A stretch of 64,000 nt of DNA from positions 62,001 through 126,000 of the forward strand of contig NW_026867374.1 of NCBI RefSeq assembly GCF_026571515.1, in the 5' to 3' direction. The notes beneath the pieces were generated by a model, which was not told the origin of the DNA, did no database searches, and saw only the letters and a list, made by a program, of their open reading frames with translations. The stretch comes from Ruditapes philippinarum (lineage: Eukaryota). Below, piece by piece: positions 33,694-61,176 of the stretch. The position numbers were made by a program, and so were the translations under genes. The first letter of the stretch is position 1; each line of letters begins with the position of its first letter.

Positions 33694-33783
33694 ATGGAAG
33701 AGGAAAAGAAGGATGTTAATCTGCCGTCAGAAACTCCGGCCAATGAACATCAATTTCACCATCCTCCTCCAGAATATAACGAG
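33694..33783 (+). CDS. Orphan first coding exon V1: MEEEKKDVNLPSETPANEHQFHHPPPEYNE (PPEY)
   Basis: ATG 33694, 30 open codons, GAG|gttagt phase-0 donor; aligns to gene A/B exon 1 (A[D/N]ExxFxxPPPxYxE). Confidence 0.8.
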
Positions 33784-36106: not shown

Positions 36107-38125
36107 TTAAAAGTATTTTGAGAATAATTGCCGCCAGCTCACGAAATCTGCTTTGCCGAAAGGACAGAAGTAAATAAAGGAAAACATCTTTTTAATATGA
36201 ATCATTTCAGGATTGTCCGTTGTTGCTGATTTATTAATGATGTCAGCGAAGAACTTTAACAACAAATCAGATTCGTTTGTTGCTTACGAAAAGAGGATAA
36301 CAAACCACTTTCAGTTGTTTTATTCTGCTTACTCGGTTTCTTGACGACAAATAGCCAAATTCACGTATTTAAATATTATCGCCCAGCTAATATCGCTTTG
36401 TCGTGCGGTTCCTTGAAGCAGCAGACGAAATTCATATGTTTTTGTCTTGTAGTTTGACGCGTAAGCGCTAGCGAAAACATAAATATACAGTATTTACCAT
36501 AATGTCAGATATCTTGTGGAATTCCATTGCAAAGTTAATGATATTACTTTCAATATTGATATATCACTTAAGGGATGGGATGATGCCAATTTATTGTGTG
36601 TATTATTACAACCCAGTAAAGTATAAAAATGTATACATATTACCAAATCCATTAATGTACATATTGTTGAAGAGGATAATGCCTTTATAATATAATGTTG
36701 CCATTTGCCGAATCAGTAATGATATTTGTTGATGGAAAATAAATGATACGTCATCAAGTGAATATGATTTTATAATTTATTCTGTTAAAAACTGCTTGAA
36801 CCAACGAAATTGCAGCTATTTTTATATAATATATTTTAACATTTGAAATAAAAATATATTATTTTGACTATTTGCTTGATTTGTGCTTATTGCGATGTTT
36901 GCTGATAATAAAGAACAGTTCAGATATGTATGTCAAATGATAACAGGATGTTTTATGCTTATGTTCCTTTTAAAAATGCGCATTGTTAAGTTCAAATAAT
37001 GAAGTATAAAACATATAACCACTTTGAAGGAGAACGCCCTGGTGCTGCCTTAAATAGCATCTGAAAAGCAATAATGTCCAGTCCAGTCCACAAGTTCGGA
37101 TCACCGTTCAAAGTCACTAATCCCCAGAACTCGAGCTGAAAATTGCTAAACCTGTTTGCAATGATAATTAAAACGAAGTACCATAAATTTTTTTTTTCAA
37201 ACCAAGTACACTTAAGATCATACGAGTCTTATACCGGCTGCCGGTACAAATCACAGTATCTGGCTCGAGAATAAGAACGCAATTCATGCATAAAAGGCGC
37301 GCGGGAATGACGTCGTTTAAAAAAAGGTGACTTGCTTACGGGAGGGGTGGGGGGAATATAACAGGTTTTTCTAGCACCGGTGTAAACGGTAGATATAATC
37401 ATGTCTGATATGCAAGAAAATCCAGTCTGATATGCAAGGAAAAACACTATAATTTTGTAATAATGTTGTACCTCACACTATGCGCCACAATCTACAATCT
37501 ACATACCCCCTGGGATGATATTTGTTTTGGGGTTTCTGCAGCCACTATAAATAAAACAACAAACAATTCATTACCTGACACCAAAATGACACAAAAAGTA
37601 TGTCAAATACAGTACATAAGCATTTATTCATCGTAACTCCAATGTGAAAAAAAAATCCAATAATGTTCCTATTGCAATAGACCCAGAGTCAAGTTCTTTG
37701 CTGTATTGAGCTCCTTTTCAATTGATCTGAAATTATATATTCAAAAGGAATGAGAGAAAAACATTACCGTAACTGGTATCGATCCTAAGTACAGATTAAG
37801 GCAGGAAGAAATTTATGTATAGTGTGTCATTATTTGATGATGCCGCGAATATCATCTCATTACAGTGTGCTGTCGTGTGGTTTTATTCAAACATTATACT
37901 TTGTTTTGCTGCTTTAGAGCAGTATTAGTGTTTGCTAATCTAATCAATTGCAGATTTTCGAGTCTGATTAACTAACAATTAGCTTGCGCGTAATGAACGT
38001 GAAACAGGAAAAAGAAATAATAACTTAATCAGTAGTAATAATAGTTTCTGGAAAAAAAACATATAAAAAGGAATATCTATAGAATTGATTTTACTTATAT
38101 CAAGAAAATAACTTAAATTCAAAAC

Positions 38126-38203
38126 ATGGAAGAAACAAGTAGTATGTCGGATGTTTCTGTTGGTGAACCTTCTTATTGTCAACCTCCAGAGGAACATAGT
38201 GAG
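38126..38203 (+). CDS. Orphan first coding exon V2: MEETSSMSDVSVGEPSYCQPPEEHSE (PY motif degenerate)
   Basis: aaacATGG context, 26 open codons, GAG|gtaatt phase-0 donor; YCQPPEEHSE aligns position for position with FHHPPPEYNE. Confidence 0.65.
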
Positions 38204-41200
38204 GTAATTACAAAATTGTTTATTTAACGTTTTACCTGCATATCAATTATTGTTTTAGTTCAATAATATAGTTAAGTTATAATATAGTTTGGTTTAAACA
38301 TATTTGCATTTAAGATATTTTTATATACACATGTTTATATTTTACAATTTAAAGCAAAAGAAATTGGACAGGAGCTACAGTAACTCATGGTAGTTCTCTC
38401 CTTTAATAAAAGCAATACGAACATATAATACCTGACTTATTAGAATTTTAATTAAAGAGAATAGATGAAGAAAAATTAGAAAAGAAATACAAATATGTAA
38501 GTAATTCATGGAAAATAATAGCGAGTAAGATTGGGGAAAGAGGAGAATGCGGATGTTTCTGAATAAAATTAACGTATCATTTTCAATCCTTAAGGTAAGA
38601 ACTTCATGTATGAATAAATGTTTGATTTACGAATACAAACTATGCCACATATATGTATGTAAATAACGGTCACGGAAATTTGTATATATCAAAATAATGG
38701 GGTTTGTTCTTAGTTGAAGCAAAATTATATTGTTTATTAAGAATATTATATATTTCATTACTCTTACAGAACAAGTAAACTTTACAATATTTAATATTCA
38801 AGCAATAAGAAATTATTTCATCAATATAATTAATATCATAATAATGCAAATAATTTTCTCAAAATTTGAGTGACTTTAACACAATGTATACTATGCTGTT
38901 TATACCATGAAGAACCGAAGCACTCACACAAGTCATAACAATATATTTCTGCTCTTCGACAGTTAACTAGTACGTGTGTGCATAAATATTTGTTATTCCT
39001 TTTTATTTTCTTTATGGTATATTTCTCCATTCAAATCTCATTACTTCCAAAAATTAGTTAAAGTTAAACCGCAATGATGACCCTTATACTTGAACTACTT
39101 TTCATTGCGCAGCGTAAGCGTAGCCGTTGATAATGTACTTCTATTTCCCGCGCTTTTTAAAAAATAGTATAAAGTTGCTGGGGTATTTTATGAACTTGTA
39201 GTCAATTACAATATTTCGTTCTTATAATTCTCGTTATTCTAGTATTGACGGCATATACGGGAGTATATAGCCTTCTTGATTTCTCGTCAGCAACTTGTAT
39301 TACTAATAGTGTACGAAGCGTGATGGATTAAAAGATAAATGTATAAACATAATAAATATTATTTTATAATTTATCAATAGAAAATTTGTTCAAAATGCAT
39401 TACAAACTACATGAACGACAACTAAATCTGAATTTTGAAGGTATTACTTAGTCAAGCTTATCAATATAATCTTTAACAATGTTGTTCTTTTGTTCCAATG
39501 GTTTCGAAAACTACGTAATGCGATAAGCTATACGTAGCTGCGCACCTTGGGGATGTTAGATAGTTTCGTATAGCAGAAGTAACCTTTAAATGTCATTTTA
39601 TATCATGTTATCCAAAGAGGGTCCATATTTCATACAAAACAAAGCAATAAATTATTCTACAATGAATTTGTTGTCGTTCTCATATCTACGACGTTAAATA
39701 TTTTATAACAATAAAACAAATAACACAATACAACAGCAATCCATTGCAAACGGGGATTTAATATGAGACAAACATTAAAACCCGTTTTTTATCAGTGCTG
39801 TTCCCCTATATACTGACAATTGGTGGTATAACGGTAAAAGTCTACATTTGATAAGAAATTGTTCAAACATCGATTTATAAGTCCAAATGTGATATTCTTT
39901 GCTGGAAAGCATGCAAACATCTCTGTATAACAAAGTTAGTCGGCTGTTTTGCTGCTATTACATCCCCTAGACAACAACAAATTACACCTTATTGCTCGTA
40001 CCATTAATATCAGGCTTATTTTAGTAATATTATATTATTTATACATCAAGAACTAGAAAATCAATTAGATCAATCAATGTTCATGCGAGACATACTTAAA
40101 ATATGGCGTATTTTTAACCCTTTTAACATAAGTGCCGAATATGGCAGGCCCACTAATTGAGCCCGGTCTACAGACAATTTAATGCAAACCATTCCATTGG
40201 CCACGAATGGACAAAAGTGTCTGTTTTATTGGCTTTTTCCATGTACTGAAGCACTTAAGATACTTAGAAATGGAATAATAATTGAATAATAAGTCATGGA
40301 AAGTATGGCAAAGGTGATGTCGATGTTGAAGATAAAGTTTGCACGTATTGGTTACAGTATACATATTATTTGCCGATACCCTTTCAAAAGTCTGGCCTTG
40401 GTTACAGGGAAATTTTGTTTACTTTTTAAAAGCAAACTGTTGGTATCAAAATTTGCAGAAATGCGTAGACTTCTAAATGGTTTACACTTAATTAAAATTT
40501 GATCATTATCAGAACTTCAAATACTGGTTATCAAGAGAGAGGGAGAGGTGAAAATAATATTTTCAGAAGTATACCTTTTGTGTATGCGGTTTTGCATTTG
40601 GATATCTGAGTTCTTGACCGAAACATCATTCATCATCTCAAGTCCGTAACATGACGTTACATCAGTTCCATGCTGTCTCGAACACTTTGGATGATCCATT
40701 TTCTAGATGGACGCATTGCTTAATTGTACAATAGTCTTTTAAAAGTCACAGTATCATTTTTTCCCTTCAGCTATTTACACGAAGCCACAATTGTGACAAT
40801 TGAAAAACGTCAAAACAGAGTAAAATATTGTGTATTCTGCAAATTTTGATATCATATTTGTCACTATTCTGCTCAGATTTGCCAATCCAAGTAACCAAGT
40901 GCACGCTTTCTTTTGCAACTGAGTATATATCAAAAACAATTTCTTGTAATATGTAGGAGTTTAACCATATCAGATTTCAATAACAAACATTTCTTTTACA
41001 TAAATTTGGTCATATCTGTCTTTAATTTAAGATATTATTAGTTTTACTTTTCATAAATCAGTCTCATTAATCTTTGTCATGCAATACTAGAACAATAATT
41101 ATACTACCATGTACGTTGTAAGTTATACTTAGAGGTAAAAATAAGCGTTATTGTGAAATTGACCTAAATGACAAAAATTGCATGGGTGGAAAAAATGCTC

Positions 41201-44200
41201 TATATATAAGTATCTTTAATATTACAAAAAATGCGTTTCTCTACAAAAACAAGTACCAACAACAGTCAGTTTACAAACAAACCGACATTTTCTTCTGGAT
41301 GACAAAATTATATTAAAACATGTCATCTATATATTATCATTGAGGAATAACAAAAATTAACAATAATTAAAAAAAATATCAATGATAAATTCCCACGATA
41401 GAGTAGACTTATTAATTCTTATCGTAACAACTGAATTAAAGTCACAATGCGTTTTTTCGTTGGGTTATATTTTGCAAAATTAAATGCGTCAAAACACAGG
41501 TATCAAATAATATGAATAAGCTTGAATTCACTTTGTAAAAAGCAATGAAAAGTAACCACAACAAAAATAGGAGCAGCAAACAAACTTAACAACTTGCATA
41601 GAACATTTAAAATTTAAATAATCAAATTCACGGTATTTTGTTCCTTGCGTAAACTTGTCGTTACACTAATAAATACTTAGTATGACTACCACTGTATTAC
41701 CTTTGTTAAAAATGAATTGAACATCCTTTTTTAATTAAGCTTTTAAGTATGATAAATTTGATTTCCTTTCAAATCTATGTCCTTTTCCTGAATCCTTTTC
41801 ATTGATTATTATACTATATTGGAAAGAATAGCCAATTTAACTTGGTATATTGTCTAACAACGAAATTTTATTACATACAGCATTTTTATAAAAGATGGTT
41901 AAGAGTACATACGGTACATCTGTTTATAATAGTTTTTTTTTATAAAAAACACCACAAAAATTGTTAACAGACATAGCTACATATTGAAGTAATTAGTACA
42001 AGTACTGTAAAGATTACTGTCAGATAATAATTAACATGGCAAATTGTTAGACAAATACAAATAAAAAAGACAATATATAGCATATAACATACTTTTTTCT
42101 CTTGATTTGGGACGTTAGATATATAACTATGTTTCTTATTGTTTCTAAATAAACCAGTGTTTTGAACTTTATAGTGGCTTAAACATTCTTATCTCAGTGC
42201 GTCTATTCATATGCACATGACTAAATCGCCATATACATTGAATCGCTGTATTTATTTCAAGTTGATAACATTTTTTTTGTATTTTAGAATGACTTTAACC
42301 TGAATTTCAGCTTAACAGCGTGCTGGGTTTTTTTTTAAAGAAAAACTGAATCTCTTTTATGTCAGAGGCAACATTTGTGGGAAAACATAAATTTCTAAAT
42401 CCTCATAACAAGATTTGTATTGATAAAGTGAAATGAAAGCAGGAGAGTTTATTGAATTTAAATGTTTAGAACATTTTACTGTCCGCTTTTACAGTCAGCT
42501 TTTTACTCTTCTCTAATGTTCATACATTGTTTTGAGAATATATTTTTGTTGGTGATTATAATTTTGAAATCGTATTATTAAAAGTGAAAATTTACATAAC
42601 AGCACGACTTCTTGCAACTTGGGGTCAATTACATTGAAATGTAATGACCTGCATTACATTACAATTCCATTAACAGACCTCTATTCATTATATTACGTCT
42701 TTAAATAAACCCAATGTCATAGAAATGTGAATAGCAAAGTGTTCAACGTATAAATATCACTAGTTATAAGAATACTCGTACTAAATACGTACATTCAAAC
42801 TACAGATAAAATTAATACACAATAAATAAAACAGTTTAAAGTCAAACAGTTTTGAACAACCCAGAGTGTTAGTTACATGTACTTTAAAGCAACACCAGGG
42901 GGTCAAAATCACCTCTCCTTCTGGAGCTAAGAGATACATAAACTCCAGTAAATCGAACCTATTTAGTCGCCGTTGGGTATACGGCGACTGCAATTCTTAG
43001 GCATCAACCTTAAAAAGCAACCCTCAGCCACAAGAGGGACAAACCGTATTACTAAGTGCGTTCTAACACACTATTCTGTAATATATATATTGAATAAAAT
43101 GACAAGTTCTTTGTTACTTAAATGTGAAAACAGTTACGACAGTGTGTTTAAAGAGAAGTAGATTTATAGTTACTTTATATGTCATTTTCCATTTCCTGTT
43201 TAGCTGAATTTTTACTTAGCACACATATGAATTTTTCAGTACCGTCATTACTGAGACGGATTAAACTAACTTTAACATCAGGAAAGATATTTCTTCAAGT
43301 TTTATTGCAAGATGTCATGAATTAATAATTAAAAAAGTAAAATTGTTTTTGTAGAATTCTATGCTGTCGTTCCTCCTTACAAGTTGAATTTGCTCTAAAG
43401 GGCCTTATCCTATACACTAAATACAAGGTGTAATAAAAATAATTAGAAAAGTGTTTGTTGTTCATACTGCGATCTCAGAAACATAAAGCAGATCTGATCA
43501 CAAACCAAACTTTGTTATAAGAACAGATACTAGTATGCAAGTGTTTCTTCTTTTCTCCTTCATCCACAGTATCAAACCATCTACTTTTATGAGTGTGTCT
43601 GAAATTCATTTTGAAGTATTTCTTTGTAAGATGAAGATAATTTATACAATTTACGGTACTGTCAGTAATTTGTTTGTCGAGGAATATTTGTGTATATATC
43701 ATTTAACATTGATCTCCTGTTGATGCAATTGTTTTTTCTAAATTTGGAACGCCAACAATCATAAATAGTTAATTTTCTATCCAGCAAATTGCATAGATAC
43801 ACCCTTGGGATTTCGTTATTATATCTGCTTGGTACTAATACTTTTCTCAACACAGTTATCTACCATCTTCCGAATGGTTTCTATAAGTTTTATAATTTCC
43901 TGTTTGAATAATTTATAATGACATCCCGCCGTTTTTCGGCCGTGTACCCTGTCCTGTTTGGTGTCCTGCTGGGCTCCTTGCCGATGGTCCTGTGTTGAGG
44001 GATGCGTTCGTTGAATGCCTCCTTTCCTTGTTGATCTTGCTTTTCATATTTTACAATGATAGTGTGTCATTTTAAATGCTATAAATTACATGTTTTGTAC
44101 TTTAGAACATGATTGGTCGGAATAAAATCACATCAAAAGTGTATTATAATATCGCATTGTTTTTTTTGTAACTTCAGTCATACCGTTCATCGTCGTTTTA

Positions 44201-45390
44201 AATTTATCTTTAAAGCCTGAACAAATTATATTAGTAACTGACAAATGAACATTTATGGCTTAGTTTCAAGTTCCCAAGATACTAATTGATATAATTTAAA
44301 CATGTCGGTTTCATCTGCTGACATTTTGCTTCTAGTTATTAAAGTCATATAGTATTTTACAGCTCTGTAGAGAGCAGGCACATATACATTTGTAATTCTG
44401 CTTCAATATAACACTGACTGTAATAATATATATGATGAAATTAGATTTAACATATAATAAAAGTGATATCATTGAAAAATGTTATCATTAAGTAAAGATG
44501 CCATGATTTTATTGACTGATATTATTTTCTTAGAAAAAAGTCGGCATAGAAATATTGTGTTAAGTAGGTTTTTTGTCTTGCCTTTATTATACTGTAACAA
44601 CTTATATAGTCACAAACCTTACAAGATTCCATCTATAATATATGAATTATGCAATAGTTTTACCTTAACTATAATATAATTATCAATTTAGACTGTTTTT
44701 CCTAAACATTTTAGCAATATTTCCTAGAATAAAAAAACAACAAATTATTATATCAAAATTTTCTCTCTATATATAAAAAATCAACAAAAGATGCCAATAA
44801 TTAAAAATATAACTAGTTATAAAAACAAATTTTGACGAAGCATTTAAAACATAAATCAAATTCTGCGAAACCATTTTTTTTGAAAATGTATTGCTACCTG
44901 GATGGATTAAGTTGATTTAGAGAATATTTATGGATTTGCTATATCATAAGGCATTGGTCTTGGTTTAATTATCACTAACTCTTCTGTTTTAGTCCACTTT
45001 TGATACATTCACTGGTGAACACAATGTCGGAGAGCAAATCAACTTTAATACCCATTTATTGCACATAACAATCATATTATATTACCTTTCATACTTGGCA
45101 AGATTGCAAGATTGTAAAAAGGACTAAAATATTCATAACGGTTGATGAATTTTTTTTGAATAACCATATAAAACTAAACAAAAGTAGACAGCATGTTGGC
45201 CGTCCGTTACCTCTTGCGTCGCCTCATAAATTTTAACCATTATGCGTGTTGTAGGTCCATAAATGGCAAATGGGTCAAATGGCCTGCATTCAATAACTAG
45301 GAACCTGTACATCAATACATAATTGTTCTCTTCATACACTTTATAATGCTATCTTAGACGACGAGTAGTTCCAATTCACTGTCGTATTAT

Positions 45391-45508
45391 GAAGCCACGC
45401 AAACATCGTTTTTTATTGAGTAAAAATCCCGATAATCAAGTGTTTTGTAATACGCCAAAAGTCAATGCGCTCTAGTATTTTGCCTGTTTATACAGATCAT
45501 CAGTTAAG
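45391..45508 (+). promoter_or_regulatory. Conserved non-coding module upstream of first-exon cassette V3
   Basis: cacgcaaacatcgttttttattgagtaaaaatcccgataatca...gtcaatgc is homologous to 33171-33290. Confidence 0.55.
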
Positions 45509-45889
45509 TGTATTGGATACCTTGATAAAGGATTTACATGATAAAATATCAATTAAAGATAGAGTAGAGAGTATAATTCACTTTAGTCGCGCTAATTTTA
45601 ACATTTATTCACCAGAAGTGTTCATGATTTGGGACTAAAATAAATTATTATAACTAACCTTAGGCCATCGGCCAAGTTTTGAATTATTGTCGGGGATTGT
45701 GATAATTATTCTAAAGTTAACGTTAAAGTTCAAAAGAGATGTTTCTTCAAACTTATGAATTTACATGATTGATAATAAGCGTTTATGATTGTATAGTTCT
45801 CAAAATACATTGGAATAACGTTAAAGAAATCAGCAACAATTTAGATGCTATAAGTGGTCAAATTAACAAGGATTCGTTTAATTAAGACA

Positions 45890-45964
45890 ATGGATAAGGA
45901 ATATTACAAGGTTTATAATCAATCGGATCTACAATTCCGCCATCCGCCGCCAGAATATACAGAG
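45890..45964 (+). CDS. Orphan first coding exon V3: MDKEYYKVYNQSDLQFRHPPPEYTE (PPEY)
   Basis: acaATGG context, 25 open codons, GAG|gtgagt consensus phase-0 donor; QFRHPPPEYTE resembles V1 QFHHPPPEYNE. Confidence 0.8.
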
Positions 45965-47683
45965 GTGAGTACAGGCATATTAACATTTTCATGTAATCAA
46001 CTGATCAACATTACATTAACGACCTATTTTAAAAATGCACGGTAACGTCTGATTCTTAGAAATATATAATCTATTACTCTCTAAAGCATTAATTTACTTT
46101 TAACAAATAATTGTATTAAATAGTTCAATCTCTATCAAAGCTATGGAAGATTTACCTGAGAAGTAATATTCATTCATAATATTGATGTTTTTATTTTGCT
46201 CTCGCAGGAGATGAATTATTACTCTTAGATAAACTCCACTACGTATCATTTTCTTCGACAAATACTTTGTATCGTGGCTAACACACCTTTTCAACACATT
46301 GTAGTAATTAACTTAGTGTTTTAATTGCCCGCATCATAAGAAAAGTACAATAAAATCAGTATGTGTTACATTGTTGTTCTCGTTTGACGTTCAAACACAC
46401 TAAAAATACTTTTTACAAAGCACACATGCCAGTTTGTTAAGTGGTTCATGTAGATAACGGAAACTGTATATTCAATTTCAACGTTTTTCTGTAAATAGTA
46501 ATTATGTTCTTAGTACGGAATCGTAGTTGTTTACAATCGCAGCAAAGTACAGCAAAGTACAATTTGGTAGATGTACAGATTCGATCCACATGTATCGCTT
46601 AGAAAAGATTCTAAATTTAGTTCTGCTGCAGTAAAATAATCATTATAATCAAAACAAATCGTCTTATCTTGAAGATTTTGCAATAAATCTTGATTTACAA
46701 ATTAAGAGGTAGATTTGATTTTGTTTAGCTACCTCTAAATAACTATTACATAAGACAAGAATTGCTGTATTATTCATTGTCCAAGAACAAGAGGTGTTTT
46801 TCTTCTTCTAAATTTCTATAAGGGGTAATGATTGCGGCTGTTAATTAATATTTGATGCACTCAGTCTACATTGGTCGTCCCATGTGACACATTCGCATGC
46901 GCAAATTAAAACACGCAAGGCATAGAAGCATGCAACATTTACTACATTTATGTTCCTTATTGAATAAAAAAAAATCTCCATTCACATATGTTATTTTTGC
47001 ACTCGTGTTTAAAAATATTTGGATATTAAACTAAATATAATGATTTAGAGATAAATATAGGCATAAATATTTCTAAAATAGTTCTAAATTTCATTCGTAA
47101 CGTAGTAATAATTTCAGAAAATGTTTCCAAGTAAGACAACTTAAATATTTTACTTTGGTCAAATGAAATAGGTGATGAAACATAAGAAAACATGTCAATC
47201 TTCATGAAGTAGTAAAGAAATAGCTACTCTTTAAACATTCCCTTCCTTTCCTTTTTGGCTTAAAGTAAGATTAATTCTGGTAAAGAGCGTAACTTTATTC
47301 TCATACAGAATATTCCGAGGTTGGTACAGGAATTTTCGTATATTTGACAATCGTTTAAAAACGTTTGAACTACATACCGCAACATTTGTTTCGCATTTTC
47401 ATAAATCCTAACAAAACGTTTTTTTTTCTCTACTGATAAAGTTATTATTAAATGTTCTGGAGGTAAAGTATCAATACATCAAAGAAAAGAATATTTAACA
47501 ATATCTCATATAATATAAATCCAGAATATTGATAAATGACTTGTGGATGAACGAATATGTGAAGATCCTACCATAGTTTTACAAGGGTCATACTCCCCAC
47601 TTTTATTAAATTATCAAAAACGTTGAATCAAAATTTGGCTGATTCAATCTCCTTCCCGATAATGTACTTTTTATAGACTAACA

Positions 47684-50171
47684 CCCAGCAAACACAAGAC
47701 GTCATACTGATGTCAGATTTAAGTCAGGTTCTGACGTCGGATGACGGTCGGAAAAACGGTTGGATTTGAAAGTTTTTTTGACGTAATAATCTGACGTCAG
47801 GTAGACGTCAGAATCTAACCATTATTTAACCTTTTTCTGACCAAAATCTGACCATTATCTAACCATTTTTCGACCTCAATCTGACAATTTTCTGACCTCA
47901 ATCTGACCATTTTCCGACCTAAATCTAACCAGTTTCTAACCATTTTCCGACCTCAATCTGACCATTTTCCGACCTAAATATTAACGCCTTTTCTGCCCTA
48001 AATCTGATCATTTTCTGACCTTCATCTTATCATTCCCCTAATCCTTTTTGTTTCACCACGTCATCAATATTTTCTGGCTAATCCTGATTTGATCTAATTT
48101 AATATAACTCATTCTATTAAGTAACTTTCCCTCAAATGAAATGTATAACAGAAAACTAAAGCAAAAAATATGTTTCATGCTTTTTTTAATTTAAGATAAA
48201 AGTTGCAATTTTAAGCTGATACATACAATTTTAGTAGATTCTGCAAGGTAAATAATTTTCATAATTAAACAAAATAAAACATAAAATAAGTTAATTACAA
48301 AACAAAAAGTATTACAAAAACAATGACATAAATGAAACTAAGAAAACATGTACAAATATTAAAGAACAAAACAATGTATGCACATTTCTATCAAAGTTTG
48401 CTGTATCAAATAAAACAATGAAAATATTATAATTTTAAGAAAAGTTAAAAGATTCTGATAATAATGTTTCAAGCAATTTATGACAGATTTTCAGTACTTT
48501 AACTATATTTCTACAGCATTTCTAAAACATTTAATGCCATTTTGCATATTTTGACCTCCTTTGATAATTGTCAGGAATGTATAAATTGCTGCCTTTTAGT
48601 TACTTCACAAAGTTATACTTTTAGATATCCATGAGAATTAGCACGAATTTTGAGGTGTGATGCTTTAAGATATGACCTTCTTTCAGCACCCCTCGTCTGT
48701 CCGGAGAATTAATATGTAGCGTTTGTAGCGCCCAATAGCGTGTGTGACATCATTTTCACTGAAAAAAAAAAGAAATTTATGAAACATGTAAAAATAACAA
48801 GCAAAAATGTTTTCATGGTTATCATGGTTATCTTAACTTAATGGACAATTATGCCAACATTTTATAAGAGAGCTTTAACAAAAATTAAAAGTAAACATAA
48901 ATACTGAACATTTAAAAAGCCGCTTTTAAATTCCAGTTTAGTATGGATTAAAGTATGTAATAGAATTTACAAAAATCTTACTTTCATATGTTTCTTTTTA
49001 CATATTCACGTGTTTCCGTCCCTCCGACCTTTGAGAGCATGTCCAACACTTTAACTACCTGAAAAGAAAATTATATTCTAACTTATGTATATATTCTACT
49101 TTAAATATTTCATAGTCTTAAATTAAAGATTTAATGCCGAAATGTCTGGAACCAAAACGTCTTGCGTTATTTGGGACCGGAACGTTTTTGGTTATTTGGG
49201 ACCGAAACGTTTTGGTCCGAAATGCTCGAAATCGTACAAATTCATTCTCAATTCTCAGATTTTAACTGACAAAAACATTACAGTTTAAGAAAAATATGAA
49301 AACTAAATATTCTCTTTGGTAATACTGAAAGGCATATTATAAACTTATCACAAGCAGAGTTAAAACATGTCAATTTTAAAAGGATTTATTATTAGACATT
49401 ATCGCGAATTTGTGTGACATTTTACTTCAGCTGTTCAAATAATGATAATTAAATTTAAGAGTGCTTGCAACCATGCAATTATTTATCAAATAAAGAGTAG
49501 AAATAAATCTAAATAAATTGAACTGACCTTTTTGTTCAAGAAAATCTATAATATTCACTTATAAATGCATTCCAATTCCTGACCGACAGCCAAAACGTAA
49601 CGCCTACGAATTTGAATTTCCATCCACGTGACTTTAGATTCGAATTAAAGGTTAATCATGTTTTCTTTCCCTTTTCTGTCACTAAGATTAAATGTTAAAC
49701 CACTATTAAAAACGCGTTATTTTGATACATATAATGTACCACAAATGATAATATTATGTACAACGTTAAAATTTAAATGATTGGAACTTGTAAACAGATC
49801 TGTGACTATAAATAGCTTTCATAACAATAACACATGTAACTTGCGTATATACAGCGCCACCTATATGTTTTATTAGGTTGCAGCGCCGCGATCTTGGTCT
49901 GTATTTATATAAGAACACTTCATTTGTAATCCAAATAACATTTGAAAAAAGTTTAAATGATTACAACAGCGAATAAGGATTATTTTTTGTTATTTTTTTT
50001 TACCTACCGTCAGGACACCGACCATAACCTGACGTTAGTACGACGTCAAAAAGAAACGTCTATTAGACATCGGTATTTTAACGTCAGATTTACGTCGTAT
50101 TTTGGTCGCCGATGTTGTGACCAAAATCTTACAGTAATCCGACGTTATTTTAACGTCATGTGTTTGCTGGG
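47684..50171 (-). mobile_element. EnSpm/CMC-like internally deleted DNA transposon
   Basis: TIR CCCAGCAAACACA[A/T]GACGT at both ends, 2-bp flanking duplication CA/CA, subterminal ~22-bp tandem repeats (47815-48030), decayed minus-strand exons. Confidence 0.75.
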
Positions 50172-50261
50172 CATGGAAGTAAAGTTCTTTTTTTCAAAAT
50201 GTTATATTTTCGCAAAGTAGCGTTGCAGTATTAGCATAGTGACCCAATTAAAACGAGTCTT

Positions 50262-53200
50262 TCAGTTTCAATTACTGTTTATCAACTATGCTTACCAACC
50301 CTCTTTATTTCAAGATTTATGCATCAACAGCGCGTGAATACTGACTTGATAAGTGTTTATATGTCATCATTAATCTAGTATAGATTCTACAGAGTCTTAA
50401 TCTGTTATAGAACGCATTGATTCCACTATAATATGTTTCTATGTAATTGTAACAATCCCCCGAGAACTATTTCACTGTGAATACATGATTATTTACACAA
50501 TGTTGACAAAGTTTATGTCACTTGGGTCTTTTATAATGGCAATGTATAAGATAGATAAAAAGTGAATTATTTGTCATAAATCAGTATCAAATGAGACAAT
50601 GGGGAAAAACACAACTTAATACAATCATAATACATTTGTGTGATTATGGATATTTGAAAATGAATAAACTGTCCGGGGGATGAAAATGATACAATGAGGT
50701 GATTTTCATATGAATATTTATGAGGCCAGTTGTGACTATGTAAAAAATTAAAAATACGTTTCATAATAATTTTCTTCCTAAACATTACATGTCAAGAACA
50801 TAGATATTTTGATATCTAAGAGCATTTTTAAGAAGGTGGGAAAATATGAATGACTGTAATGAGTAAAATGTAAAAAAACAATGGTTAATTTTCGGTGTCC
50901 TTTGAATAAAATATTTGTACAATAAGCTTTTATCCAGAAAGAGTGAGAAAGAGGAATATATTGAAGAATGTTGTTCTATTTTTCTAAACTGATAATAGCC
51001 CATAAGCATGTAGCAGAAAAAATATATAAATGAAAAAAAAAAAAAACAACAAATCTTGGCAGTTAACATATTTAGCTTGCAATACTGTAAACTATAGTCA
51101 GGCATATTGTAGATCTTTGTAAATCTATAAATGACCCGGACAGTAAACTTGAGTCTTTCATCACACCAGTGTTGACCTAAGAATGCTATAATTAAGATTC
51201 ATTGGTGTCTTATTACTAATATATGTTACCAGGAAAACAAATTAATTGTTGGCGTATCTCTAACATGTTGTATCAATTAGCAAGAAAGAATATCGCACAA
51301 TGTATTAAATATTTAGTCGTAATTATGTTTTATTCCGCTAGCTTCTCATCGGATTATTATCTGATCAAGACAGTTTAATACTCTATCTTCTAATGATTAA
51401 GGTTTCTAGCAGACTTTTTTTCTCAATTATAGACAATGGTATGACCTATAACATAATGTTGACAAAGTCTATGTCACTTGGGCTTTTATAATGACAATGC
51501 ATAAGATAGATAAGAAGTGAAATATTTGTCATAAATCAGTATCAAATGAGACAATGGGGAAAAACATACAATCATAATACATTTGTTTGATTATGGATAT
51601 TTGAAAAGGAATAAACTGTCCGGGGGTGAAAATGATACACTGTGGTGATTTTCATAAGCGAGATTGTGACTATGTAAAGAATTAAAAATACGTTTCATAA
51701 TACTTGTCTTCCAAAACATTACATGTCCAGAAAATGTATTCTTTCATTAAAGCCATATTTCACCTTAAGATTTAACGAATCATTTAGACAATCAGGTCAA
51801 ATGGGCTGTAATCTGATATTTTGATACCTTAGAGAATTTAAAAAGGTGGGAAAATATGAATGACTGTAATGGGTAAAATTTAAAAGAACAATGTTTATAT
51901 TTCGGTCTCCTTTAAATAAAATATTTGTACACAAATATCTTTTATCCAGAAAGAGTGAGAAAGAGGAATATATTGAAGAATGTTGTTCTATTTTTCTAAA
52001 CTGATAATAGCCCATGAGCATGTAGCAGAAAAGATATAAATGAAAACCCAAATCTTGGCAGTTAACATATTTAGCTTGCAATACTGTAAAAAATAGTCAG
52101 ACATATTGTAGATCTTTGTAAATCTATAAATGACCCGGACAGTAAACTTGAGTCGTTCATCACACCAGTGTTGACCTTAGAAACTATAATTGTGATTCAT
52201 TGGTTCTTATAACTAAAATCTGTTACCAGGAAAACAATAGAATGATTGTTGGCTCTGTCTCGTTTGTATTGCTCCAACATCTTGTATCAATTAGTAAGAA
52301 AGAATATCGCACAATGTAGATGTGTATGTTTATTATGTTTAATCGTAATAATGTTATATTCCGCTAGCTTCTCATCGGCTGCTTATCTTATAAAGACAGT
52401 TTAATCATCTTCTCAATGATTAAGGTTTAAAGCAGGCTTCTTTTCTCAATTATAGACAATGGTATGACCTATAAACACAAATATATAACAATAATACGAT
52501 AATACTTAAACTGAAATAATGAGGCTATTAGAAGTGCAAACATGATGTCCCTACCTTTTGATATTACTACTAATAATTTGCTATGATTGTTAACAAATAA
52601 ATCGTGTAGCATTTGGGAAATTCATTTTCAATTCAACAACAGGAATAATTTTTTCGGACTGAAATTTGACCTTTGAGAAGATACAAAGTTTTAGATGAAT
52701 AGCTTTCTTTCCTTTTAACTCATTTGTTCCATTTCAATATTGATAGTGGGTGTATCTATTTCTTTCGAGTATTTAAATCTGCAAATGCATCCCGCAAAAA
52801 AAAATCCGCATATGAAGAAATTGAAAAAAAGTCCGAGTGACACTGGAGATGTTTAAGCACGACACATTATGAAACGCCAGGCCGTCATGATGTTATATTG
52901 CAGTCAGCCAATTTCTAAGTGGCAGTCAGATTATGCATTTTCAAAGAACGTGTAATAACGACGTTTGCACGCGTGATATTATTCGTTAACACACGTATCC
53001 GTCTCCGTATAAAGGTGTGTAATTATATGCATAAATCGGTTACTGACAAAGCATACTTGAGTAACATGAACATTTCAACCACAGTTCAATTACTTTTTAT
53101 CAACTGTGCTTACTTACCCTCATTATTTTTAAATTTATACATCAACAACGCGGGAGTATTGACATGATAAGTGTTTATATGTCATCATTAATTGAAGACC

Positions 53201-55705
53201 TAGTATGGAATTCTACATAGTCTAAATCTGGTAAAGAACGCATTGATTCAACTATAATATGTTTCTATGTAATTGTAACAATCCCCCGAGAATTGTATCA
53301 CCGTGAATACATGATTATTTACACAATGTTGACAAAGTCTATGTCACTTGGGTCTTTTATAATGACAATGTATAAGATAGATAAAATGTGAATTATTTGT
53401 CATAAATCAGTATCAAATGACACAATGGGGAAAAACAAAACTTGATACAATCATAATACATTTGTGTGATTATGGATATTTGAAAATGAATAAACTGTCC
53501 GGGGGATGAAAATGATACAATGAGGTGATTTTCATATGAATATTTATGAGGCCAGTTGTGACTATGTAAAAAATTAAAAATATGTTTCATAATAAATTTC
53601 TTCCTAAACATTACATGTCAAGAACATATATTGTTTCATAAAGTCATATATTTCACTTTAAGATTTGACGGATCATTTAGACAATAATGTCAAATGGACT
53701 GTAATCTGATATTTTAATATCTTAGAGCATTTAAGAAGGTGGGGAAATATAATATGAATGACAGATTGTAATGAGTGAAATTTAAAAACAATGTTTATAT
53801 TTCGGTCTCCTCTGAACAACGTATTTGTACAATAAGCTTTCATCCAGAAAGAGGGAGAAAGAGAAATATATTGAAGAATGTTGTTCTATATTTCTAAACT
53901 GATAATAGCCCATGAACATGTAGCAGAATAAATATAAATGAAAACCCAAATCTTGGCAGTTAATATATTTAGCTTGTAACGTTGTGCTGTATAATATAGT
54001 CAGACATATTGTAGATCTTTGTAAATCTATAAATGACCCGGACAGTAAACTTGAATCGTTCATCACACCAGTGTTGACATTGGAATGCTATAATTAATAA
54101 GATTCATCGGTGTCTTATATACCAAGAAAACAAGATAATGAGTGTTGGCTCAGTCTTAGGGCCCGTCTTCACCTATCCAAGTCTTGAATGCAAGTATCAT
54201 ATTCTCTTGTATTGGATAGTGTAGACACCCTACTTGAATGAGTTTTAAAGAGAAATTATGTGACATTCAAGAAGATAATTCCTTGCAAGAAAGTTAGAAC
54301 ACGTTCTATTTTTCTACAAGTTTTGGCTGTCAAGACACTGATAACACCGGTTTGACACAAAACATGTGCCCCGAAGGTGTGATAGTGTTGTTCTTTTATT
54401 ATTTTCTGACTTTTCTTGTTACTGATTCAGTGTTCATGATCTGTAAATTTTAATAAATGTATAAAATATCTTGGTCAGAGGATCATATCAATAAACTGAT
54501 ACACCAGAAGAGCAAAAAAAAATAAGTTTTTCAAGTAGTCAAAATAGATTTTAAATGATCTTGTTCATTTAGTGAATAACTTTCATCAAATAAAGAATTT
54601 GCATCAATTTATCAGCTCAAAAAAATATTTTTCTCACATTTTCCATTATTTTATAAGAATGTACACATTTCAATTTCATTTGCTCCATTGTTTTTAGCTA
54701 ATTGCATCATTTTCCCGCTTTTTTATTCACATATTTTACAGAAACATGATAGCATTGCAAAGACAAAGGTATAAATCCTGGACAATCTTAATTAGACATT
54801 CCAGTAAAAATTGTGCCTGATTAAATATTGAAAGGGCCATTTATTTAGCTTATCTAAATGTGACATGTAAGAAACTTGAATAGGTGTAGACACGGCCTTA
54901 TTTGTATTGCTTCAACATCTTGTATCAATTAGCAAGAAAGAATATCGCACAATGTATTAAATATTAAGTCGTAATAATGTTTTTTTCCGCTAGCTTCTCA
55001 TCAGATGCTTATCTTATCAAGACAGTTTAATACTCTATCTTCTCAATGATTCAGGTTTCCTGCAGACTTATTTTTCTCAATTATAAACAATGGTATGACC
55101 TATAAACATAAATATATAATAGCATGATAGTACTTAAACCGAAATAACGATGCGAACATGATGTAATTACCCTCTTCTTTTTACTACTATTACTTTGTCA
55201 AGATTGTTTACAAATAAATCGTGTAACATTGGAAAATTCAATTTTCAATCCAACAACAGGAATATTTTTTTAGGACTGAAATATGACTTTTTAGAATAAA
55301 CAAAGTTATAGTAAAAATAGTTTTTTACTGTTAACTCATTGTTCCATTTCAATAATGATAGTGGGTGAATGAATTTTGTACTTGTATTTGCATCAATTCT
55401 GCATATGCACGAGGACCATATTCGCACGAGGACGTATGTTAGCCCAAACCCGCATTGCAAGGGATTGAAAAAAGAGTCTGAGTGACTTTGCAGATGGTAA
55501 AGTACGGTATGTAATTGCTGGAGTCGTCAATAGGTTTAACTGCAGTCAGCAATTTTTGAGTGGCACCAAGATCTTGCATTTTCAAAATAACGGCGTTATA
55601 GCACGTTTTCTTCTCCATATAAACGTGCATAATTTAAACAAAATACTTGTTTAATCGGTTATTGACAAATTATAGTTGAGTAACATGAACAATTCAACCA
55701 TAATA
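50262..55705 (+). repeat. Complex tandem duplication (blocks X-Y-Y-Z-X-Y-Z)
   Basis: Block Y (aatgttgacaaagt[t/c]tatgtcacttggg...ggtatgacctata) at ~50497, ~51455, ~53325; block X at ~50262 and ~53085; block Z at ~52475 and ~55105. Confidence 0.9.
54159..54897. mobile_element. PIF/Harbinger-type MITE
   Basis: TTA duplication both sides; TIRs gggcccgtcttcacctatccaag / cttgaataggtgtagacacggcc; empty site visible in the sister repeat at ~52251. Confidence 0.8.
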
Positions 55706-57167
55706 TAATTCAAACTAAAAGGGTTAAAATTGTAACCAAAATGGGACATTGTATTATGTTCCAGACCCATAACCCACATAAACAAAATCAATTATCAGGC
55801 AATTGCCCAAATAATATCGTAATCAATGTAGCATCACATCTTGTTGACCTGTGTTCTCTCTTATAGCATTATTTCTGGCATTTCTCTCCATTATCAGCGA
55901 TAAAGCTTAATTATCTGCACATCATAGATAATTGACACACAATAAAAACAATTAGCTTATTGAATGGCTATATAATAACATTTACGCAAGTAAGTATGAG
56001 GTAGAAGTTTCACGTGATTGAGTTGTGTTTAATTATTTTATAGGAAATATAGGAATAACTGATTCGTTACAAAAGTTAAAACATGCATACGTTTCTGATA
56101 AAATGAAATTGCAAAATGATATGAATTGGAAAAAAAATCCCTTAAAGATTTTTGAAATTTCATTAATATGATATTAAATAGACAGACAATGTAACACATA
56201 CACAAAATCGCTATCTGGGTAGGTCGGTTAATTGCACTTATTACTGTCGTTACTTAATTTACCCAAACAAATTAAGCCTTCATAATTTTCAACTTTGCTG
56301 TGTAAGCAAACCTTAAATGTTTTGGTTTTGACTATTGATGTAGGTAGAAAGAGATGTAAAGGCCAACGCCCATTTAATAGTACAATTTGTTCAATTTTCT
56401 TATTTGTATTTTTTTTATCTGTCACTAACATGTATAAGTAGATTATTTAATCTACTATTAATTAAAAATAATTGATAAATAATCGGACGCGTGTTGGCTA
56501 TAAAATCCTTTCTGTTGTTATCGTTGTGTATGCCGCCTTTCTGTTACTGTCCAATAATGAATTACGGACATCGACACCTGACAGTAATGGCATGGCGGAA
56601 CGTTATAATAGTTTATACATTGAGTGGAAATAACCAATAATCTTCTGAGCAATACGGAGTGAAAAGTCTGTGATAAACACTTATGTTTTTGTTCTTATTA
56701 TTCAAATCAGTATCAATTGTACACTTTAGTAGATATTGCATTGCGTCACTTCTGGATTATTATATTCAGCGAGTTGTTTTCTAATATCAAGAAATGATCA
56801 ATAATATTTCCTTTTAAAAACATCTGAGCAGAAATCATTTATTTCTTTCAAAATAAAAAATGATGTATTTTAGCATACCATGATGTTGGAGAAATAAAAG
56901 AAGCTTAATTAAGATAAAAATAGTCATTTTCAATATAATTAACAACAGGGACATTACGGTATTTAATTAACAGATATTTTATTTGCGGACATATAAATTT
57001 TGTTTAAAATGAAAAGTGATATAATTGAAATGAAAATGTGTTGGTGTGTAAATTGGGCATAATTTTGTTGTTAAATATTAACTTGGATGTTTTTCACATT
57101 TTTATGGATGTACCGGAACTATAATAAATTTGGAGTTAAACATTAAACTGCACACAAAAAAACTGAT

Positions 57168-57245
57168 ATGGATATCAAACGGTCAAATTCACCTTTCCAT
57201 GTTAATCATTTAAAGACACGAATACACCTACCAGAACTGTCTGAG
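57168..57245 (+). CDS. Orphan first coding exon V4: MDIKRSNSPFHVNHLKTRIHLPELSE (PY motif lost)
   Basis: gatATGG context, 26 open codons, GAG|gtatgt phase-0 donor; RIHLPELSE aligns with RIPPPTYEE / RHPPPEYTE. Confidence 0.55.
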
Positions 57246-57319
57246 GTATGTAAATGATACGAATTTGTTTTCTTTAAAATGAGCTTACGGTATTAATCAA
57301 AGCCTGCAACATTTCCAAG

Positions 57320-57506
57320 TAGTCCGGACAAACTTTAAAAATAAAAAATATTAAAGGGCCATAACTCTTACAAAAATCTTTGAACCGGAAAATGCTGACA
57401 ATATGCACAACTACACTTGGTACTGATCATTCCTGTAAAGTTTGGATGAAATTGCACCAGTAGTTTATGAGGAGTAGTCCGAACAAGTTTTGTGACGGAC
57501 GGACGG

Positions 57507-57538
<32 letters not shown>

Positions 57539-57586
57539 GAAGTGATCCCTATTTGTCGCCACTACTCCGTAGAGGCGACACAAAAA
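57320..57586 (-). mobile_element. Short Helentron/HINE-like fragment
   Basis: Minus strand starts tttttgtgtcgcctctacggagtagtggcgac, then (GTCT/GTCC)n, then one core unit. Confidence 0.6.
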
Positions 57587-59862: not shown

Positions 59863-61176
59863 TTATGCCTCCACTTCGAAGAAGAGGGGGTATATTGCTT
59901 TGCACTTGTCGGTCCGTCGGTCCGTCGGTCTGTCGGTCCTTCGGTCCGTCGGTCCGTAGACCAAATGGTTTCCGAGTGATAACTAAAGAACCCTTAGGCC
60001 TAGAAACTTCAAACTTGGTATGGTGATTGGTCATGACCAGTACATGACCCCTATTAATTTTGGGGTCAAGGGGTCAAAGGTCAAGGTCACATTGACCTTG
60101 TAGGTAAAAACGGTTTCCGATCAATAACTAAAGAACACTTAGGCCTAGGAACTTTAAACTTGGTATGATGATTGGTCAAGACTAGCAGATGACCCCTGTT
60201 GATTTAGGGGTCAAGTGGTCAAAGGTCAAGGTCACATTGATCTTGTAGGTAAAAACGGTTTCCTATCAATAACTAAAGAACCCTTAGGCCTAGAGACTTC
60301 AAACTTGGTAAGATGATTGGTCATGACCAGCAGATGACCCCTATTGATATTGGGGTCAAGGGGGAAGGTCAAGGTCACATTGACCTTGTAGGTAAAAACG
60401 GTTTCTGATCAATAACTAAAGAACGCTTAGGCCTAGGAATTTCAAACTTGGTATGATGATTGGTCATGACCAGCAGATGACCCTTATTGATTTTGGGGTC
60501 AAAGGTCAAGGTCGCATTGACCTTGTAGGTGAAAACGGTTTCTGATCAATAACTTAAGAACGCTTAGGCCTAGGAACTTCAAACTTGGTATGATGATTGG
60601 TCATGACCAGCAGATGACCCCTATTGATTTTGGGGCCAAGGGGTCAAAGGTCAAGGTCACATTGACCTTGTAGGTAAAAACGGTTTCCGATCAATAACTA
60701 AAGAACCCTTAGGCCTAGGAACTTCAAACTTAGTATGATGATTGGTCATGACCAGTAGATGACCCCTATTGATTTTGGGGTCAAGGGGTCAATGTCATAG
60801 TGACCTTGTACTTAATGACTGTTTCTGAGCAATAACTCAACAACTCAAGTTGTCTTGGTTGATATTTTTATGTGCTTTTGGTATACACATTTGAAGGTCT
60901 TATGTAATATAACAACTTGGCTGTCATTAATGAGGCCTATGTGATTCATAAAATTTATGTATATATTATTTGGTAAGATTTTTAATAACATTAATTGCTG
61001 CACACAACCTATGGGGTCACAATAATTATTACCTTGTGACTAGTCATGACCAGTAGATACTAGATAACCCTTATTAATTGCTTGTTCACTGGGTCAGAAG
61101 TCATGCATAATAACCTGATCACATGACAAATTGGCTGCCGATAGGGGGCATACATGTTTTACAAACATATCTTGTT
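59863..61176 (+). mobile_element. Apparently complete Helentron/HINE-like element with ~6 tandem ~145-bp core repeats
   Basis: 5' ttatgcctcc...gggggtatatt, (GGTC/CGTC) microsatellite, units at ~59966, 60111, 60256, 60399, 60536, 60681, 3' gggggcat + hairpin atgttttacaaacat + cttgtt. Confidence 0.8.

Follow-up and report, generated by a model that had tools for sequence, protein, structure and literature searches.

Tandem first exons with intact and broken PPxY motifs in a candidate third paralog of an uncharacterised clam gene family

The short open reading frames V1 to V4 are best explained as tandem duplicates of a short exon that begins the coding sequence of one gene, here called gene C, which would be the third paralog of an uncharacterised clam protein family. 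They lie in a 64,000-nucleotide stretch of Ruditapes philippinarum DNA (contig NW_026867374.1, positions 62,001 to 126,000 of the forward strand; hereafter, the window). We give a probability of roughly 0.55 to the reading in which each of these first exons is joined to a single protein body located beyond the window, the resulting isoforms either carry or lack a PPxY (PY) motif, and the exons, referred to below as cassettes, undergo birth-and-death turnover. The existence of a tandem array of homologous, same-phase 5' coding exons is firm for V1, V2 and V3 and weak for V4.

Two members of the family precede the array on the same strand. Gene A (2860-12185, plus strand) has 11 coding exons that specify 485 amino acids and end in the CaaX-like sequence CNIL, and gene B (20517-27126, plus strand) ends in CLIL. 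Each has a single PY exon, which is located at 2860-2943 in gene A and terminates in FRLPPPSYED (motif PPSY), and at 20517-20606 in gene B, where it terminates in FRIPPPTYEE (motif PPTY). In gene B, the acceptor of the exon near 25400-25615 is uncertain, and this exon appears disrupted. Gene A is the ortholog of Mercenaria LOC123540686 (74% identity over the compared body; tree support 100/99), and gene B is the ortholog of Mercenaria LOC123540761/LOC128549190 (81-82% identity; support 95/93).

Proteins of this family, which are found without annotation in molluscs, annelids, brachiopods, hemichordates and amphioxus, share a layout of an N-terminal PPxY, four alpha/beta repeats and a C-terminal CaaX. 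The terminal C-a-a-X sequence is CNIL in A, CLIL in B and CSIL in Mercenaria gene C, and is found in 24 of 26 close relatives; from sequence, this end is predicted to be prenylated and to bind membranes. Pfam gave two single-member matches among 105 family proteins and nothing usable for six exon peptides and four full proteins, and the best hit of a PDB sequence search with the family had an E value of 0.15. Foldseek searches with whole chains returned no match at E 0.001, which does not make the fold a new one. The best VIA structure match reached a Z score of 5.7 over 50 residues, and an Atlas search returned only unnamed clusters. The A, B and C proteins of R. philippinarum itself were not among the protein-search returns. 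A metagenome scan produced 119 pattern matches that reduce to two loci, both representing the family gene of another bivalve, and one of these (L001) contains one PY exon that ends at the same junction. Titles and the beginnings of abstracts revealed no literature on this protein family or locus.

The four open cassettes are all on the plus strand. V1 (33694-33783, 30 codons) ends in FHHPPPEYNE at a phase-0 donor, and V3 (45890-45964, 25 codons) ends in FRHPPPEYTE, each with an intact PPEY. V2 (38126-38203, 26 codons) ends in YCQPPEEHSE, with PEEH at the motif positions, and the candidate cassette V4 (57168-57245, 26 codons) ends in TRIHLPELSE, with LPEL at these positions. All six exons, including the first exons of genes A and B, have a reading frame without stops that begins with an ATG and continues up to a GT donor in phase 0. 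The donors of all four V cassettes rank within the top ~1% of GT sites in the window, with that of V4 the strongest, and each of the four V start codons has a purine at -3 and a G at +4.

To score the cassettes, we used a profile trained on 17 database N-termini only. Among 3731 plus-strand GT sites, V1, V3 and V2 rank third, fourth and fifth, respectively, and none of the 3516 minus-strand control sites scores as high as these three. The V2 score was equalled in one of 150 shuffles, and by sequence V2 is clearly homologous to the family first exons. V4 ranks ninth, higher scores occur at six of the 3516 minus-strand sites, and its peptide score by itself was equalled in 133 of 1000 shuffles. 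When this score was combined with Kozak context and donor strength, the result was matched in 1 of 1000 shuffles, using thresholds chosen after the V values were seen. The proposed homology of V4 is therefore weak and near background. A repeated ATG-GT site within duplications at 50-56 kb was also considered as a cassette and was rejected because it has no profile support.

No family body exon and no N gap was found between positions 27201 and 64000, so the body of gene C would be located beyond the window, with positions 57246-64000 (plus strand), which likewise contain no family body exon, forming part of the presumed intron that leads to it. We consider it very improbable that each V exon instead begins its own gene, the body of which the assembly has collapsed or lost. 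The family does duplicate in tandem, as with A and B and with the two B-like loci in Mercenaria, and no gene C body is seen in the window. However, neither a body exon nor an N gap separates the V exons, and the Mercenaria models place six such exons on one body.

The terminal decapeptides of all six exons read exactly as an earlier note on this DNA gave them, and the sequences confirm the intact PPxY motifs of A, B, V1 and V3. An [L/P]PxY sequence is present in these four exons and absent from V2 and V4. That note also held that V2 and V4 had lost both the Tyr and the spacing of the prolines. This description fits V2, in which the second Pro and the Tyr are gone, but not V4, which keeps L-P and thus by the [L/P]PxY rule retains the spacing and lacks the Tyr alone. 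The alternation of intact and broken motifs does not amount to a pattern, since two of the six possible orders of two intact and two broken cassettes alternate (a 1-in-3 chance), and an additional decayed cassette that was overlooked earlier sits between V3 and V4. The five PPPEY codons of V1 and V3 differ by two synonymous changes and no replacement. Of 26 non-gene-C proteins from database searches, 25 have retained PP[S/T]Y, and the motif is intact in 2/4 open cassettes of the window, 3/6 Mercenaria cassettes and 0/2 other gene-C relatives. The retention elsewhere in the family indicates that the motif is labile mainly in the cassette gene. Among 99 further full-length relatives, 40 have a PPxY within the first 110 residues, with flanks that are otherwise unlike.

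Support for a shared body comes from Mercenaria mercenaria LOC123541053, which is represented in RefSeq by computational models (XP_045182602 and six further isoforms) that are named only 'uncharacterized protein', and for which no paper was found. Isoforms X1 to X6 have six homologous N-termini on one identical 457-amino-acid body, whereas X7 starts at a Met in exon 2 and has no cassette exon. This locus, a third paralog, forms a clade separate from the A and B orthologs (support 100/99), and we infer that it is the ortholog of gene C in the window. LOC123541053 and the orthologs of A and B are each on a contig of 74,526,284 nucleotides, which does not in itself place them next to each other. 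A shared body with PY-containing and PY-lacking isoforms, as proposed earlier, is thus supported by the models of the Mercenaria paralog, and for the V exons of the window no junction is present among the matches listed.

The motif breaks differently in the two species. X2, X5 and X6 have a canonical PPxY, and X1, X3 and X4 are broken; all six retain the Tyr, with the prolines broken in three, whereas the Tyr is lost in the broken cassettes of the window. The Mercenaria gene-C body contains no other [L/P]PxY. In a first-exon tree (30 columns), V1-V4 and X1-X6 group apart from the A/B-type exons (100/98). Removal of the motif columns reduces the support to 65/89, with V4 leaving the clade and one A-type exon entering it. 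X1 and X3 are 90% identical and X4 and X6 are 82% identical, suggesting recent duplications, and the data neither establish nor reject cassette monophyly by species (p-AU 0.14 and 0.16).

Turnover is also evident within the window. A decayed fifth cassette at about 47175-47319 (plus strand) consists of a 5' remnant reading KHVNL and a 3' remnant reading HTEYSE with its GT donor. These remnants share one frame but are separated by inserted sequence with in-frame stops, and no open start is present. A match of this quality was reached in 0 of 40 shuffles, and the last 30 bases of the dead copy are identical to V1 at 20 positions, to V2 at 18 and to V4 at 12. When neutral decay was simulated at 0.5 changes per site, 0.4-1.9% of runs (range 0.06-6.9%) ended with the exon still open, and 83-100% of the exons that remained open lost the motif without any selection for its loss. 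V2 is consequently unlikely to have stayed open at its divergence under neutral decay, which the earlier note had named as a possible refutation. The cassettes are a real set of variable first exons in birth-and-death turnover, in which selection appears to maintain a functional start and donor for V2 and the PPEY of V1 and V3. On this basis, the on/off character of the motif more likely reflects released constraint than a conserved, purpose-built switch.

Such a switch would require that the PY-broken class predates the split of the clams and has been kept since because ligase-resistant isoforms are needed, which we judge rather unlikely. In its favour, V2 groups with the PY-broken X1 and X3 (96/92; 88/88 when the motif columns are omitted), the second Pro is missing from all three, the intact share is about half in both species (2/4 and 3/6), and V2 is open despite its high divergence. 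However, the intact V1 and V3 likewise have X1 or X3 as their best pairwise match (z 10.7 and 7.1), so the apparent orthology of V2 with X1/X3 is unspecific. The branches of V2 and V4, based on 24-30 columns, are also long, and the placement of V4 with X4/X6 (83/79) disappears without the motif. Moreover, the Tyr that is lost in the window is kept in all six Mercenaria cassettes, and the simulated exons lose the motif readily without selection. One-to-one orthologs of V2 and V4 in a sister species, a comparison the earlier note had suggested, are not established by these trees and pairwise matches with the Mercenaria cassettes.

Four RNA runs were sampled over positions 37340-57339, a region that leaves V1 outside, using 4-5 in 100 of each run and bins of 667 bases. 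RNA over this region is dominated by repeats. The V3 bin has a depth about tenfold or more above that of adjacent bins. In two runs, the V2 bin has depths of 0.22 and 0.43, compared to 0-0.51 for exon-free bins, and the V4 bin, flanked by higher bins, has depths of 0.86 and 0.79, and neither of two contig sets has a contig over it. No splice junctions, starts or loose ends of V exons are among the matches listed, which are mostly repeats and stop short of a further 19 joints and 965 loose ends. In this small read sample, the proposed expression of V2 and V4 therefore finds no support, with V2 at background and V4 indistinguishable.

These data fit an explanation in which V2 and V4 are silent relics, V4 perhaps being a chance ATG-to-GT frame, and only PY-containing isoforms are made. 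The raised V3 bin, the ease with which shuffled sequences match the V4 peptide score (133/1000) and the dead cassette, which demonstrates that copies do decay, all point in this direction. Nevertheless, we regard it as unlikely, since the RNA sample is small and coarsely binned, an exon at such divergence rarely stays open under neutrality, V2 and V4 both retain a Kozak context and top-1% donors, and the broken-motif cassettes of Mercenaria are annotated as isoforms.

Most probably, transcription of each cassette starts at a promoter of its own, which we infer because no Mercenaria model has two cassettes. Comparison of the cassettes revealed no shared upstream element (z about 3 at most), and a scan for TATA sequences upstream was uninformative. 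In A, V2 and V3, acceptor-like AGs precede the ATG by 3-21 bases, although these are no better than random. They bear on an arrangement of mutually exclusive internal cassettes that share one promoter and a non-coding exon upstream, such that splicing sets the PY state. In gene A, a pyrimidine-rich AG lies 5 bases ahead of the start codon, the AGs of V2 and V3 at 21 and 3 bases before the ATG have scores within those seen for true acceptors, and X7, by starting in exon 2, could reflect skipping of all cassettes. This arrangement is nonetheless improbable. Its acceptor scores of 2.2-3.2 do not exceed the lower quartile (3.2; median 4.7) of the top-scoring AGs from random 200-base windows, and V4 has no acceptor near its ATG. 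To keep the cassettes strictly exclusive across more than 23 kb would also take a special mechanism, whereas separate promoters would provide it directly.

The role of the motif as a ligand is suggested by other proteins. Both PPEY and LPTY of AMOTL1 are reported to bind NEDD4 proteins (PMC6410177), and mutation of the Pro or Tyr in the PY motif of ENaC is reported to impair Nedd4-2 binding (PMC2582799). In a structural model of the Mercenaria APKY isoform, residues 1-30 have pLDDT values of 57, 76 and 78 (range 57-78), and a helix is predicted at residues 28-32 over the Tyr. The N-terminal tail may therefore be less disordered than expected of a free ligand.

This prediction leaves some room for another function of the conserved Tyr, either in core packing or in a YxxPhi sequence whose last position would be the first residue of exon 2, in which case NEDD4 would not be the partner that distinguishes the isoforms. 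YxxPhi is a sorting signal recognised by adaptor proteins. The Tyr is kept in all six Mercenaria cassettes though the prolines break in three, the residue at Tyr+3 is Val or Ile in close family members, and the predicted helix adjoins the first core strand. We find such a role quite unlikely, however, because the recurrence of PPxY in 40 of 99 relatives with unlike flanks fits a WW-domain ligand. The extended PY motif PPxYxxL is moreover described as including a hydrophobic residue at Tyr+3 (PMC2582799).

In the preferred reading, each V cassette would be spliced singly to the shared body, giving isoforms with a PPxY from V1 and V3 and isoforms lacking it from V2 and probably V4. The PPxY of the V1 and V3 isoforms is predicted to recruit NEDD4-family ligases to a body that would be held at the membrane by its predicted prenylated CaaX end. 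Presumably, PPEY isoforms would be ubiquitinated and then sorted or degraded, whereas PY-less isoforms would persist. A bolder version, which we put forward tentatively, is that gene C is a degron dial selected in venerid clams, whose promoter-linked micro-cassettes have graded affinities for NEDD4 ligases (PPEY, PPKY, APKY, PSDY, PLDY, PEEH, LPEL and none). Promoter choice in a given tissue or stress state might then set the lifetime or vesicle sorting of a prenylated, four-repeat membrane protein. An array of this kind would link the choice of promoter directly with protein turnover, offer a naturally occurring set of PY variants, all on a single body, for assessing WW-domain tolerance, and provide a first handle on an unannotated invertebrate family. 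If the motif losses reflect drift only, the array would still clearly exemplify the birth and death of exons.

Pairs of isoforms that differ in PY motifs are known from other systems. The Epstein-Barr virus proteins LMP2A and LMP2B use different promoters. The N-terminal domain of LMP2A is described as recruiting WW-domain ligases through PY motifs, and LMP2B lacks this domain (PMC4314583, PMC10535929). As presented in these sources, this system differs from the clam array in being viral and in having two isoforms distinguished by the presence or absence of a 119-residue domain. Similarly, angiomotin p130 is reported to bind NEDD4L via N-terminal PPXY motifs, and p80, which is without them, does not (PMC4337731). 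The Mercenaria isoforms resemble this pair in sharing one C-terminal body and differing in the PY motif. However, p80 is described as losing the whole N-terminal extension by alternative splicing, whereas the clam gene has duplicated exons with intact or point-broken predicted motifs. Known pairs of PY-positive and PY-negative isoforms simply have or lack an N-terminal extension.

Clusters of multiple variable first exons are described for vertebrate clustered protocadherins, UGT1A, plectin and nNOS (PMC3338513, PMC7811963), and chelicerate sDscam genes are reported to have 5' cassette arrays (PMC4835542). The clam array resembles these, as the cited accounts portray them, in its tandem homologous 5' exons, in the single set of constant exons of the Mercenaria models and in its species-varying number of cassettes. 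Those clusters are described as varying an ectodomain or substrate-binding domain and the clam protein family is unrelated to them; its variable part is a peptide of 25-34 residues in which the PY motif is the sole recognisable content. The array was already implicit in the automatic annotation of LOC123541053, where six cassettes all have the Tyr. Whereas arrays of variable first exons usually diversify recognition domains, the repeated unit in these clams would be little more than the PY motif itself.

The window is AT-rich animal DNA, and the nearest named relatives of its proteins are from Mercenaria mercenaria (82% on one exon), which places it in a venerid-like clam. Its first 27 kb are taken up by two paralogs, gene A (2860-12185), an ortholog of Mercenaria LOC123540686, and gene B (20517-27126), an ortholog of LOC123540761/LOC128549190. 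At 25400-25480 in gene B, the exon matching the 228-base exon of gene A is interrupted by stops toward its 5′ end and seems to change frame there. Mercenaria B-type models likewise skip or depart from family sequence at the equivalent place, which may point to decay of gene B in both species or else to an assembly error. Between gene B and the first cassette, 28100-32600 holds a ~1.5 kb unit repeated in tandem three to four times (copies 72-87% identical), and no family exon was found inside it.

Four plus-strand exons, V1 (33694-33783), V2 (38126-38203), V3 (45890-45964), and V4 (57168-57245), are candidate first-exon cassettes of a third paralog, gene C. The decapeptides that the earlier note read from A, B, and V1-V4 are present as given, and each closes an open exon running from ATG to a phase-0 GT. 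All four cassette donors are in the top 1%, and each ATG has a purine at −3 and G at +4. An N-terminus profile trained on 17 database sequences, with window sequences excluded, places V1, V3, and V2 third to fifth, right behind A and B, out of 3731 GT sites on the plus strand; none of 3516 minus-strand sites scores as high. V4 ranks ninth; its score on its own is equalled in 133 of 1000 shuffles, or in 1 of 1000 when Kozak and donor filters, picked after the fact, are added. At the position of the PY motif ([L/P]PxY, the predicted ligand of NEDD4-family WW domains), V2 has PEEH and V4 has LPEL. The claim that both had lost the tyrosine and the proline spacing thus holds for V2, whereas V4 has lost the tyrosine and retains L-P. 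The proposed alternation of intact and broken motifs is not a pattern, since two intact and two broken exons take such an order one time in three.

A decayed fifth cassette, overlooked in the earlier note, lies between V3 and V4 at 47175-47319. Its donor at 47319 was found by BLAST with V1 and V3. A DNA profile of V1 and V3 gives this site 22.0, a value close to those of A and B; none of 63349 minus-strand positions scores as high, nor did the maximum of any of 40 shuffles reach it. A profile that includes A, B, and L001, a family gene of another bivalve, is less decisive, being equalled in 10 of 40. A KHVNL block 135 bases upstream, in the same frame, resembles the 5′ ends of V1 and the Mercenaria cassettes and ranks fifth of 127954 (~0.006 expected within 150 bases). 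In-frame stops separate this block from the 3′ remnant. The region is a dead cassette copy, and therefore the array turns over. In a 30-base comparison with V1, the dead copy has 20 matches, against 18 for V2 and 12 for V4. Between it and V4, degenerate tandem duplications of 1-2.8 kb occupy 50250-55700, and in three copies a run rich in pyrimidines precedes an ATG and a GT, which may make up an ATG-only micro-exon. Satellite-like arrays follow at 59900-60800 (145-base unit) and 61700-62540 (22-base unit, inverted arrangement).

In 27201-64000, neither a six-frame family profile nor tblastn queries of the A, B, and gene C types found a body exon, the matches being chance-level scraps, and the only N runs in the window are at 6353 and 18433. 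The gene C body must therefore lie beyond the window. The third Mercenaria paralog, LOC123541053, the probable gene C ortholog, is on a contig equal in length to that of the A and B orthologs and has seven RefSeq isoforms, which are computational models; models of this sort generally rest on RNA alignments. Six (X1-X6) differ solely in an N-terminus of 29-34 residues and have the same junction and one identical 457-residue body, while the seventh (X7) begins at the exon-2 methionine. Three of the six cassettes are canonical (PPEY, PPEY, PPKY) and three broken (PSDY, PLDY, APKY), with the motif tyrosine retained in all. In a tree built on 30 columns, V1-V4 cluster with X1-X6, apart from A/B-type first exons (support 100/98); when the motif columns are dropped, support is 65/89, V4 falls outside, and one A-type exon falls inside.

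RNA matches to 37340-57339 were taken from two raw runs (4-5 in 100 reads used) and two contig sets, with repeats dominating. The V3 bin, with summed depths of 1.58 and 1.57, stands above three flanking bins (0.05-0.15) and is touched by both contig sets, which is weak RNA support for V3 expression. The V2 bin (0.22, 0.43) is at the level of exon-free bins (0-0.51), with nothing above background in the two sampled runs, and an intronic piece of 33 bases can account for its contig depth. In the V4 bin, depth (0.86, 0.79) is indistinguishable from that of its neighbours, and neither set has a contig there. The check on V2 and V4 transcripts proposed in the earlier note thus gave no signal distinct from background or neighbouring bins at this sampling; the V3 bin is raised. 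The note's proposal of a shared body with and without the motif is supported by the Mercenaria models; in the window, no V-exon splice junction is among the matches listed from the two runs and two contig sets. No common upstream element was detected among the cassette flanks, and acceptor-like AGs ahead of the cassette ATGs do not outscore those of random windows. Because none of the seven Mercenaria models contains two cassettes, separate promoters would be the simplest account of one cassette per model.

Outside gene C, PP[S/T]Y followed by V/I-M-G occurs in 25 of the 26 proteins from the two protein searches, the exception (P0019) being a low-quality model without the junction. In the gene C lineage, the canonical motif is present in 2/4 open window cassettes, 3/6 Mercenaria cassettes, and 0/2 Logan relatives. 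A more distant molluscan subfamily (Mercenaria LOC123537860 [P0054], Haliotis P0047, Babylonia P0048, and oyster P0060) also lacks the motif and retains a CaaX-like end; the contig of its Mercenaria member has the length seen for A, B, and C in that species. As judged from sequence identity, the cassettes evolve fast, with best cross-species values of 53% (V1), 38% (V2), 52% (V3), and 34% (V4) versus 72% and 56% for the PY exons of A and B and their orthologs. An array kept by selection as a dial of graded predicted NEDD4 affinities is an unlikely reading. The PPPEY common to V1 and V3 shows two synonymous and zero replacement differences, which are small numbers. In neutral-decay simulations, 83-100% of the survivors are without the motif, and hence motif loss needs no positive selection. 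ATG, frame, and donor all survive in 0.06-6.9% of runs across the divergences tried; because such survival is rare and V1 is closer to the dead copy than to V2 or V4, V2 has probably been retained as a functional start exon. V2 clusters with the broken X1 and X3 (96/92; 88/88 without motif columns). This may point to a conserved PY-less class, as a lead only, because the intact V1 and V3 also have X1 or X3 as their best match.

The family is unnamed and has 329 representatives at E 0.001, with named-organism members in gastropods, bivalves, Owenia, Lingula, Ptychodera, and Branchiostoma. An N-terminal [L/P]PxY occurs in 40 of another 99 full-length relatives, and 71 of the 99 have a CaaX-like end, loosely defined. 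An AlphaFold model of the Mercenaria protein (pLDDT 90.5, pTM 0.89) has four strand-helix-strand-strand repeats; Pfam, PDB sequence, and fold searches with family proteins gave no clear match. The N-terminal PY and the prenylation motif together would suit a protein that is tethered to membranes and serves NEDD4-family ligases as substrate or adaptor. Exon 2 of A (3866), B (21491), and the family begins V/I-M-G-x-x-x-T/S, and M-G-x-x-x-S/T resembles the N-myristoylation consensus. Across 55 distinct PY contexts, Met-Gly stands at the exon-2 start in 22 and the longer pattern fits in 16. Since X7 and the Logan protein P0036 both begin at the exon-2 methionine, there may be a short form that lacks the PY motif and is possibly myristoylated; alternatively, the V/I-M-G segment may be conserved as a core strand of the modelled fold. 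The residue at Tyr+3 (Val or Ile) comes from exon 2, and therefore the extended PPxYxxΦ motif crosses the splice junction. L001 has one PPSY exon (1072-1167) with the same phase-0 junction.

The cassette array is real, a shared body is likely, and isoforms with and without the PY motif are likely in Mercenaria and plausible in the window species. The best explanation, to which we give a probability slightly above one half, is that V1-V4 are tandem gene C first exons on one shared body, yielding both kinds of isoform. A putative PY switch by choice of cassette is a reasonable, testable consequence. No precedent for an array of motif-sized paralogous cassettes was found in the mainly open-access literature searched. 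Both ingredients are already known. Variable-first-exon arrays occur in Pcdh, UGT, plectin, and chelicerate sDscam (PMC3338513, PMC7811963, PMC4835542). PPxY is treated in general terms in PMC8368996, AMOTL1 binds NEDD4-family ligases through PPEY and LPTY (PMC6410177), and in ENaC, mutation of Pro or Tyr in the PY motif, whose extended form is PPxYxxL, weakens Nedd4-2 binding (PMC2582799). As for paired isoforms, AMOT p80, without the PPXY extension, fails to bind NEDD4L (PMC4337731), and LMP2B is without the N-terminal domain present in LMP2A (PMC4314583), the PY motif of which is the topic of work cited in PMC10535929.
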